In this document: one piece after another, positions 45,001 to 48,000 of the stretch
How the letters are laid out: each line of letters opens with the position of its first letter
Numbering within the stretch: the first letter of the stretch is position 1
DNA from: an uncultured bacterium
GTDB taxonomy: Bacteria > Desulfobacterota_D > UBA1144 > Nemesobacterales > UBA2774
Length of the DNA: 64,000 nt
NCBI GenBank assembly: GCA_963705505.1
Contig: CAVPJU010000010.1
Coordinates: 1 to 64,000, forward strand
Reading direction: 5' to 3'
Program-made: the position numbers

Positions 45001-48000
45001 CCCTTTTTGTTGATTCTTCCGATCCGGACCTGACTTAAGCTCTTATTTCACCCTCCTCACAGTCTCTCGATTTATTCCTCACGCGCCGGCCCCGCCTTGT
45101 GCGGAGTCCGCTTCAAAGATAAAATACCTCTCTATGAAATCCAGGAGAACGTTCGAGGACGCCCTTAAGGAGCTCAAGGAAATAATACGCAAGCTCGAGA
45201 GCGGCAACCTCCCCCTCGAAGATTCGATAAAGCTCTTCCAGGAAGGGACCGAGCTCATCTCGTTTTCGCATAAAAAGCTCAATGAAATCAGGAAGAAAGT
45301 CGAGATACTCGTCGAAAAGAACGGGGAGACGGCTTTTGAGGATTTCGAGCCCGAGAGCTGATCCGCAATGGGATTCGATATAAAAAGCTATCTTAATCAT
45401 AAGCGGGAGCTTGTGGACAGCAAGCTCGACTCGCTGCTGGCGGACGGGGGCGGTCATCCGACGAGGCTCCTCGAGTCCATGCGTTACAGCGCTCTCGCCG
45501 GGGGCAAGAGGCTCCGGCCGATACTCACGATCGCGGCGGGAGAGGCTGTGGGAGGCGACCCTTTAGAGGTCCTGCCCGTAGCGTGCGCTATAGAGATGAT
45601 CCATACCTATTCGCTCATACACGACGACCTCCCTTCCATGGACGACGATGCGCTCAGGAGGGGTGTGCCGACGAACCACAAAGTCTTCGGGGAGTCGACC
45701 GCGATACTCGCGGGGGACGCGCTTCTGACGGACGCATTCAGCATTATCGTGAGAGACGGGCTTAAAGCAGGCATAAGCCCCGAAGTTATCTGCGGCGTCG
45801 TGAGCGATATATCGCAGGCCGCGGGCTCACACGGTATGATAGAGGGGCAGGCTATAGACCTCGCTCTTGCGGGAATTAAGGACGTAACTATAGGCGAAGT
45901 CGAGCGAATGCACGCTCTCAAAACAGGCGCAATGATAAGGGTATCCGTCACGACGGGCGCGAGGATCGGCGGGGCGGATAAAGTACAACTCGCAAAACTC
46001 ACTTCCTACGCCGAAGCAGTCGGCCTCGCGTTTCAGATAATTGACGACGTGCTCGATGTAGAGGGGGAGGGGGACCTCGGCAAGGAGAGGGGCAACGACG
46101 CGAGACAGGGGAAATCCACTTACCCGGGGCTTGCGGGGATCGAGGAGTCGAAAAGGAAAGCTTCCGACCTCACGCGGAGCGCCGTCCGTATGCTTGAGGG
46201 CTTCGACGAAAAAGCCGAGCCGCTAAGGCAAATTGCGCTCTATCTGGGCTGCAGAAATCACTGATGAACATTAAAGAAGGCAGGGAACGCGCCTCGGGGA
46301 GGAAGAGGCTCGACGCAGTCCTCGTCGAGAGGGGGCTTGTTGAGACGAGGGCCAGGGCGCGCGCCGTCATCATGGCCGGGGACGTCTACGTCGACGGCGT
46401 CAAGACGGACAAGGCGGGCGCTCTCGTAAAGGAAGGCTCGGAGGTCGCGGTCAGGGATACCTCCCTTAAATACGTTAGCCGGGGAGGGCTCAAGCTCGAA
46501 GCAGCCTTGAGGGAGTTCGGCATAGACCCGAAGGGGAAGACGGCAATAGATATAGGCGCCTCCACAGGGGGCTTCACCGACTGCCTGCTCAAATCCGGAG
46601 CCGAGAAGGTTTACGCGATCGACGTGGGCTACGGCCAGCTCGACTGGAAGCTCAGGCAGGACCCGAGGGTCACGGTAAGAGAGAAGCTGAACGCCCGATA
46701 CATCAAGCCCGAAGACATAGGGGAGCCCGCGGATATAGTTGTTATAGACGTCTCATTCATTTCCCTCACGATGATAATCCCTCCCGCGATTGCGCTCCTT
46801 AAGCCGGGCGGAGTCCTCGTCGCGCTCATAAAGCCGCAGTTCGAGGTAGGGAAGGGGGAAGTGGGGAAGGGCGGCATAGTCAGGGACGAATCGAAGCACA
46901 GGGAAGTAGTGGATAAGATCACTGAATTCGTTAAGAGTCACGGTCTCGGAGTCCTCGGGGTTATTCCTTCGCCCATCGAAGGGGCTGAGGGGAATAAGGA
47001 ATTTCTGATTGCCGCGGTTAAAGGGAACGAAGATTAGGAGAGTACGATCGGGCTATTTCTTTCCCCAGTCTGCGAGGAACCTTTCAAGCCCGATATCAGT
47101 GAGCGGGTGTTTCACTAACTGTTTGAATACCTTGTACGGCATTGTCGCAATGTCTGCACCCATTTTCGCCGCTTCGACTACGTGGAGCGGGTGTCTCACG
47201 CTCGCTACGAGCACTTCCGTTTTGATGTCGTAGTTCTCGAAAATTTGAACGATGTCCTTGACCATCTCCATGCCGAATTCCGATATATCGTCGAGCCTGC
47301 CGACGAACGGGCTCACGTAAGCGGCTCCTGCTTTCGCGGCGAGGAGCGCCTGAGAAGGGGAGAATATCAGCGTCACGTTCACGTTTATGCCTTCGTCTGA
47401 CACAATTTTCGTCGCCTTAATCCCGTCCTCGGTGAGCGGCATCTTCACGACCACGTGCTCGTGTATTTCAGCGAGGTCCCTCGCCTCGTCTATCATGCGC
47501 TCTATGTCCGTCGAGAGCACCTCGGCGCTCACGGGCCCCTTTACGATCTCGCATATCTCCCTGACGAGTTCCTTGAACCCCTTCTGCTCGCCTTCCTTGG
47601 ATACGAGGGACGGGTTAGTCGTCACGCCGTCGAGCACGCCGTAGCTCGCGGCGTCCCTTATCTCGTCGAGATTCGCGGTATCGAGAAAGAATTTCATGAC
47701 TGCCTCCTCATCGAAATTGAGGTGGAATATACCATAATTCCCGCGGGCTTTGAAATTATAAGCGCTATTGAGATCGATTATCCCCGGAATTATTTGACAA
47801 ATATGGTATTCCCTGCAAAATATTCACGATTATCCGCAGGAGGGATGTAATTTAATGGCTAAAAGAATTAAATCCGGAATCAAGAAACACCGTCAGAGCA
47901 TAAAGAAAAGAGACAGGAACACCATAGTTAAATCCGACCTCAAGACTCAGGTAAAGAAGATCAGCACACTTATTGAGAATAAGGACGTAAAGGCTGCGGA

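Follow-up and report, generated by a model that had tools for sequence, protein, structure and literature searches.

Genomes of the phylum Dadabacteria keep the MEP pathway and further DXP-consuming enzymes without dxs, a gap that we confirmed as real and phylum-wide. A benzaldehyde-lyase-like ThDP enzyme was judged, from sequence comparison, to be the most likely DXP-forming enzyme of the phylum (probability roughly 0.35). The second leading replacement was a route fed by MtnA that includes an RpiB-like protein; both are candidates only, and neither is linked to MEP genes. The ancestor of the Dadabacteria may have lost dxs, and its descendants may now obtain DXP from an unrelated enzyme.

Dadabacteria are a mostly free-living phylum, and the organisms named as sources of homologous proteins assign the genome analysed here to Candidatus Dadabacteria. 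The survey set comprised 120 of its genomes (94 of good quality; 9 families, 32 genera) and 14 controls; G000 is the genome that holds the window (the whole stretch of 64,000 nucleotides that was analysed), while G029 (1.16 Mb, one contig) and G111 (1.01 Mb; 92% complete) are reduced genomes. The DXS model TIGR00204 scored above its cut-off in none of the 120 phylum genomes and in 10 of the 14 controls, which bears out the survey's finding that dxs was lost across the phylum. The best score within the phylum was 210.7 bits against a cut-off of 465.95, and the top scores (about 200 bits) came from C-terminal halves of split transketolases, so the weak matches to dxs are transketolases, as had been proposed. 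A profile search of G000 gave no match to DXP_synthase_N, and an E. coli Dxs query retrieved only a transketolase from that genome (33% identity over 112 aa).

Consumers of DXP were retained. Dxr matched in 119/120 genomes (above cut-off in 110) and in 94/94 of those of good quality, and pdxJ was kept in all eight genomes tested. The claimed retention of ispD-H, pdxA and pdxJ stood for G000 and G029, which have the full set; in G111 (92% complete) a tblastn search over 1,011,758 bases did not find ispG, the other genes of the set being present. ThiG, a third user of DXP, was found in 19/19 genomes of the 1-Mb family and 0/101 others. The absence of a mevalonate pathway also held, with HMG-CoA reductase in 0/120 phylum genomes and 5/14 controls. 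A single RuBisCO-family match (1/120, in G012) had been counted as a RuBisCO-like protein (RLP); it lies in a cbb-like cluster beside ORFs that resemble a small subunit, CbbX and phosphoribulokinase (labels taken from N-termini) and is an ordinary cbb-operon enzyme, and therefore RLP is effectively at 0/120. Because Dxr, PdxJ and ThiG are kept and there is neither a mevalonate route nor an RLP, the conclusion that a DXP source must exist beyond the known ones is supported, and is stronger than first stated. One paper (PMC8237579) credits Dadabacteria with a mevalonate pathway, a statement that our HMG-CoA reductase counts do not bear out for these 120 genomes; that study probably used differently circumscribed genomes.

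The locus in the window agrees with the loss (Table 1). The gene order in E. coli is xseB-ispA-dxs, and in other bacteria tlyA comes after dxs. In the window the A of the tlyA ATG is the final base of the ispA stop codon and the sequence is free of N, so that the slot is indeed closed; of the usual order invoked for this slot, the xseB-ispA-dxs part is backed by the E. coli arrangement. The convergent talC-type gene encodes a Glu/Phe pair, not Gln/Tyr, which we take to mark true transaldolases and FSA, respectively, and it is read as an ordinary transaldolase that probably does not supply DXP. An FSA route was rejected on these transaldolase-type residues and on the presence of an FGGY kinase in only one of five genomes.

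Table 1. Features of the dxs-less locus in the window and candidate genes elsewhere in the same genome (G000)
Feature	Position	Strand	Remarks
xseB, exonuclease VII small subunit, 75 aa	45134..45361	+	PF02609, E 4e-21
ispA, polyprenyl synthetase, 298 aa	45368..46264	+	PF00348; 47% identity to E. coli IspA
Closed dxs slot, 1-base overlap of ispA stop and tlyA start	46262..46266	+	From the sequence
tlyA, S4 + FtsJ rRNA methyltransferase, 257 aa	46264..47037	+	PF01728, PF01479
talC-type transaldolase, convergent on tlyA	47053..47697	-	PF00923
Benzaldehyde-lyase-like ThDP enzyme (candidate), 564 aa	C6:266585-268279	-	Outside the window; usually convergent with lepA
RpiB-like gene (candidate)	C1:215860-216303	-	Upstream of asd-dapA

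A screen of the core genome left few genes to consider. Matches in both G029 and G000 were found for 746 of the 1101 G111 ORFs; these 746 shared proteins were screened by N-terminus, which can misname genes, and 149 were scanned with Pfam. Two orphan candidates with fitting chemistry were left, namely the ThDP enzyme and MtnA together with the RpiB-like protein, and the ThDP enzyme was the sole ThDP/aldolase-type C-C ligase without an assigned job that was found to be common to G000, G029 and G111. The G000 neighbourhoods of dxr, ispDF, ispE, ispH, pdxA, pdxJ and ribB contained no unknown enzyme.

The ThDP enzyme was encoded in single copy in 112/120 genomes, which cover all 9 families, 32/32 genera and 92 of the 94 good genomes, and two further genomes hold pieces of it at or near contig ends. 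Eight genomes gave no match; five of them, all except G018, G022 and G090, were re-searched, and none was found in G030 (74% complete) or in G013 (95%, 130 contigs) and G014 (92%, 410 contigs), two members of one genus that keep dxr and mtnA. In that genus lepA is unlinked and is of no help with these misses. Two misses among 94 good genomes are within expectation for incompleteness, the shared genus being a caution. The enzyme is better conserved than the majority of core genes (56% identity between G000 and G111, 73rd percentile; Dxr, 42%), and it forms a separate clade in a 58-row tree (FastTree support 100, stem 0.43). Other 50%-clusters were at most 44% identical to it, except for the relative P0121 (52%), whose nearest matches are Dadabacteria.

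The structures closest to this enzyme were benzaldehyde lyase (PDB 2ag0, 2uz1) and formolase (4qpz), with a TM of 0.90 and 30% identity. Glu50, Gln113 and the GDG..N motif are intact, and R260 and R400 of HACL, described as acyl-CoA-binding arginines (PMC11271303, PMC8760513), align with Phe263 and Asp400 in 29/29 aligned sequences. Lys413 is invariant in the same 29-row alignment, and in a wider set it is present in 183/214 rows; P0121 is the only other cluster representative displayed that has it in register. Judging by the alignment, Lys413 may face the substrate. The enzyme fell below every NCBIfam cut-off, including those for HACL and OXC (313.9 vs 600 and 262.4 vs 739.4) and for the AHAS large subunit (TIGR00118, 349 vs 538); ilvH-ilvC are accompanied by an ilvB of their own, and the ESM Atlas returned generic ThDP families only. 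From its distribution, fold, cofactor motifs and loss of the CoA arginines we infer that it could synthesise DXP. It would form hydroxyethyl-ThDP from pyruvate or acetaldehyde, which would then attack glyceraldehyde 3-phosphate to give DXP, in effect the acyloin reaction of DXS on another scaffold; possible ligands for the phosphate are Lys413 and Gln396, both specific to the clade. Against this, benzaldehyde lyase itself is not known to be a decarboxylase.

In three of three genomes and in all 12 metagenome loci listed the gene for the ThDP enzyme lies beside lepA, and across these same genomes and loci it adjoins no MEP, pdx or thi gene; a nitrilase-like gene was near it in 8 of the 12 loci listed, and three acyl-CoA ligases are also among the core genes. 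Relatives at about 40% identity in Desulfobacterota, Dehalococcoidia and others lie in clusters of catabolic character that contain dehydrogenases and transporters, their neighbours including genes for Zn-dehydrogenases, SDRs, MFS and TetR proteins, and 12 loci of relatives carry a second ThDP gene, whereas the Dadabacteria gene was without those catabolic partners in the 12 loci listed. Among 50 outside genomes with a relative, dxs was present in 41, and eight had dxr without dxs, their completeness not being given. Because 41 of these 50 hosts have dxs and the relatives look catabolic, an ancestral acyloin-cleaving role may persist.

A different source, doubtful but worth serious consideration, would be by-products of SAM converted to DXP without RLP. 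MtnP, or YfiH, which has phosphorylase activity, would yield 5-deoxyribose 1-phosphate and MtnA 5-deoxyribulose 1-phosphate; TIM-type and RpiB-type steps would then move the carbonyl from C2 to C4, as LerI/DerI do, with Rpe setting C3, so that 5-deoxyribulose 1-phosphate would become a 1-deoxy-pentulose 5-phosphate. Precedents exist in the carbonyl walk by TIM-type and then RpiB-type enzymes on erythrulose phosphates (LerI/DerI; PMC10733421) and in the MTA-isoprenoid shunt, in which RLP isomerises a methylthio sugar (PMC5893883, PMC6302742); RLP and cupin are tabulated for five dxs-less species (PMC10663253 Table S2). The retention of mtnA had been offered as a lead, and the gene is kept in 116/120 genomes and 94/94 good ones, but it is not diagnostic because it also occurs in 39/41 dxs-bearing outsiders, and it is missing from 2/8 dxs-less, dxr-bearing ones. 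MtnA has no known sink here, as class II aldolase was found in 0/5 genomes, RLP is absent and no small cupin was found in three reduced genomes (G029, G111 and G103; G000 has many cupins and G038 two); weighing against this is a weak class II aldolase-like protein in G111 only. MtnP is present in 4/5 genomes but absent from G111, which has YfiH instead, and since each reduced genome encodes only some 10 proteins with a radical-SAM motif, the supply of 5'-deoxyadenosine may be too small. The RpiB-like gene was found in 31/33 genomes (28 of 30 sampled, plus G000, G029 and G111), the two misses being 88% and 74% complete; G013 and G014 carry it, and G000, G029 and G111 also have a canonical RpiA or RpiB. 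A clear score was obtained in 0/41 dxs-bearing outsiders (all at most 121 bits) and in one of the eight dxs-less, dxr-bearing ones (G143, 145 bits, without RLP). Catalytic Cys64 and Asp8 are invariant (121/121), but canonical His9, His99, Arg133 and Arg137 are replaced by Glu, Trp, Glu and Asn and, given the roles of these residues in RpiB, sugar-phosphate binding may have been lost. A further point against this route is that Streptomyces and Nonomuraea records contain close relatives, next to unrelated genes. The G111 copy scored 92.9 against TIGR01120 (cut-off 138.65), the score against the DerI model NF051858 was 71.3 (cut-off 240), and no viral match to the RpiB-like protein was found.

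Less likely is an enzyme that escaped recognition here, whether the product of a further core gene or one that varies from family to family. Inspection of the core was mostly visual, backed by a single Pfam scan, and conserved orphans are left over (e.g. a 440-aa nitroreductase-like family and DUF1015), but no other orphan has recognisable C-C ligase or sugar-isomerase chemistry. The split transketolase adjoins uppS-dxr in f2 and f7, yet G000 lacks it and scores indicate its absence from families f4, f6 and f8. YajO-like reductases were set aside as distant AKRs (25-33% identity), and a DHAP shunt was rejected on the class II aldolase search, with one weak hmmscan match in G111; YjbQ was present in G000 and G029 and not found in G111, where a Zn polyol-dehydrogenase pair was likewise not found. 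Changing transketolase H100 and H473 confers pyruvate use. Side activity of transketolase, AceE or AHAS might give enough DXP for slow growth, and a transketolase-like match was present in 120/120 genomes, but H26, H66, H100, H261 and H473 were kept in 7/7 full-length transketolases and also in the 18 N-terminal and 17 C-terminal split halves that were aligned, the donor histidine H100 in 18/18 N halves; a transketolase variant, full-length or split, was rejected on these canonical residues and on the patchy occurrence of the split form. E. coli without dxs makes trace DXP and can be rescued by single changes in aceE (AceE Q408R, L633R, E636Q/G) or in ribB (RibB G108S, D113G), although wild-type aceE gave no rescue (PMC3424233). 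AceE, found in 90/120 genomes, was absent from 19/19 f9 and 2/2 f3 genomes and wild type at Q408, L633 and E636 in the 32/32 genomes aligned, so that an AceE variant was rejected, and side activity as a whole is quite improbable. Still less probable is the formation of DXP, or of a precursor, as a leak product of a RibB variant acting on ribulose 5-phosphate. RibB occurs in 31/31 sampled genomes, with one residue more in the 85-92 loop than the E. coli enzyme, but the survey's suggestion of a telling loop insertion did not hold up: the loop sequence differs among three genomes and G108 and D113 are wild type. As the sole copy, fused to RibA, RibB is needed for riboflavin. That cells take up deoxyxylulose or DXP supplied by a host or by neighbouring cells, as proposed for Wolbachia (PMC10253641), is scarcely credible; uptake of deoxyxylulose, which had been left as a possibility, is unlikely because only one of five genomes has an FGGY kinase, and the loss spans all 9 families, some of whose members are marine plankton (bioRxiv 10.1101/2020.06.22.165886).

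Dadabacteria are a new and unusually clean case of the known dxs-less MEP puzzle. In the literature, MEP pathways that run without DXS are recognised as an unsolved problem: Marshall et al. 2023 counted 181 of 4,400 species that lack Dxs alone, 172 of them unexplained, and urged a search for the missing enzyme (PMC10663253). Wolbachia without dxs is also described in PMC10253641. In the literature on Dadabacteria isoprenoid and MEP metabolism we found no published report of dxs loss, and for the terms searched it is not mentioned in passages of PMC13001223 or of a marine Dadabacteria preprint. A whole phylum with closed chromosomes of 1.2-2.4 Mb leaves only a few hundred core genes to search, cut down here to two short sets. 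If the benzaldehyde-lyase-like enzyme or another new enzyme does form DXP, its discovery would parallel that of DXR-II and would set right the metabolic models of marine and sponge members of the phylum, and the enzyme could escape DXS feedback control where terpenoids are engineered; if the MtnA-fed route operates, the only isoprenoid carbon of the phylum would be SAM waste, passed through MtnA and a rebuilt RpiB fold.

Compared to known systems, the Dadabacteria resemble the dxs-less species of Marshall et al. in having the MEP genes except dxs and no mevalonate pathway. That list includes Wolbachia, Anaplasma, Ehrlichia, Veillonella, Rubrobacter and Chloracidobacterium and no Dadabacteria (PMC10663253); it consists of scattered genera, many of them intracellular, whereas here a whole phylum is affected, with PdxJ retained and, in one family, ThiG as well. 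The MTA-isoprenoid shunt of Rhodospirillum rubrum and Rhodopseudomonas palustris comprises MtnP, MtnA, a DeepYkr RLP and a cupin. The Dadabacteria share near-universal MtnA, MtnP in 4/5 genomes and a need for DXP with it, but have no RLP in 120 genomes and no small cupin in three reduced ones, and such a route would be their sole DXP source. The RpiB-like protein shares the fold (TM 0.84 to 3he8) and the active-site Cys and Asp of RpiB and DerI; it differs at the canonical His and Arg positions, is below the rpiB and DerI cut-offs, and occurs beside a separate R5P isomerase. The benzaldehyde-lyase-like enzyme shares the fold and the ADP-site arginines R152 and R279 with 2-hydroxyacyl-CoA lyase/synthase (8vzf, 7pt1), but has Phe263 and Asp400 in place of the acyl-CoA arginines and scores below the NCBIfam cut-offs. 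Like benzaldehyde lyase and formolase, which are CoA-free carboligases, it has the fold, His29, Glu50 and Gln113 and no HACL-type CoA arginines; unlike them it is a single-copy core gene. In what we take to be the aromatic pocket of benzaldehyde lyase, Ala28, His286 and Tyr397 are replaced by Gly, Phe and Gln, and Ala480, Phe484 and Cys414 by Met, Gln and Lys, several of these positions being polar in the Dadabacteria enzyme. Relative to E. coli Dxs, the cofactor and the proposed reaction would be the same, but Dxs belongs to the transketolase-like ThDP enzymes and the candidate to those that resemble AHAS and POX.

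In the reduced genome G111 (1.01 Mb), dxr, ispD, ispE, ispF, ispH, pdxJ and thiG were present even though ispG was not found in a search of the whole assembly, which reflects either an assembly gap or a real loss. The two acetohydroxyacid synthase (AHAS) large subunits of this genome had lost motifs in a complementary manner, a pattern read in G111 as one member of family f9: the copy within the ilvB-ilvH-ilvC operon retained the N-terminal motifs and had lost the GDG..N cofactor motif, whereas the other retained GDG..N and had a worn N-terminal domain. Judged from these motifs, the pair appears to form an obligate heterodimer that has a single active site.

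A 440-aa family, which shared 71–73% identity across G000 (the genome under study) and the reduced genomes G029 and G111, had no match in Pfam or NCBIfam, and a weak Atlas lead points to a nitroreductase-like protein; an acyl-CoA ligase adjoined the gene in G111. The ~130-aa protein beside candidate A, the benzaldehyde-lyase-like enzyme proposed as DXP source, had no Pfam match; at many loci, though not at all, it and a nitrilase-like gene were divergent from candidate A.

Features located in the phylum and in outside genomes
Feature	Genome or family	Position	Strand	Basis
~130-aa protein and nitrilase-like gene, divergent from candidate A	G000 and orthologues	C6:268445-269992		
440-aa family	G111	L162:8530-9879; L181:10742-12055		
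440-aa family	G029	L062:10092-11435		
440-aa family	G000	C8:64205-65647		
AHAS large subunits, two half-degenerate copies	G111	L186:7818-9368; L155:1088-2830	both +	
Split transketolase, divergent from uppS-dxr-rseP	f2, f7	L041:9322-11159; also L042, L043		
cbb-like cluster: RuBisCO; small-subunit-, CbbX- and phosphoribulokinase-like ORFs	G012	L059:7584-15763		
rpiB-family gene directly upstream of dxs	G125	C14:14308-14745		coordinates
rpiB-family gene directly upstream of dxs	G130	C25:15238-15675		coordinates
Consecutive genes resembling those for phosphoketolase, glycogen phosphorylase and phosphoglucomutase	G000	window 33402-40273	-	named by eye
Cas9- and Cas1-like ORFs	G029	L120:910-5003		named by eye

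Given its cbb-like cluster, which hydrogenase-like genes adjoin, G012 is possibly an autotrophic member of the phylum. The Cas9- and Cas1-like ORFs sit in a genome of 1.16 Mb.

Outside the phylum, dxr was present with no dxs match in 8 genomes (G131, G132, G134, G143, G146, G151, G161 and G164), namely 5 Dehalococcoidia, 1 Rokubacteria and 2 others; among the 5 tested, a RuBisCO-family gene was carried by G161 and G164. Both genomes with an rpiB-family gene just 5' of dxs are Dehalococcoidales. Within the phylum, the residues of the split transketolase in families f2 and f7 were those of an ordinary transketolase.
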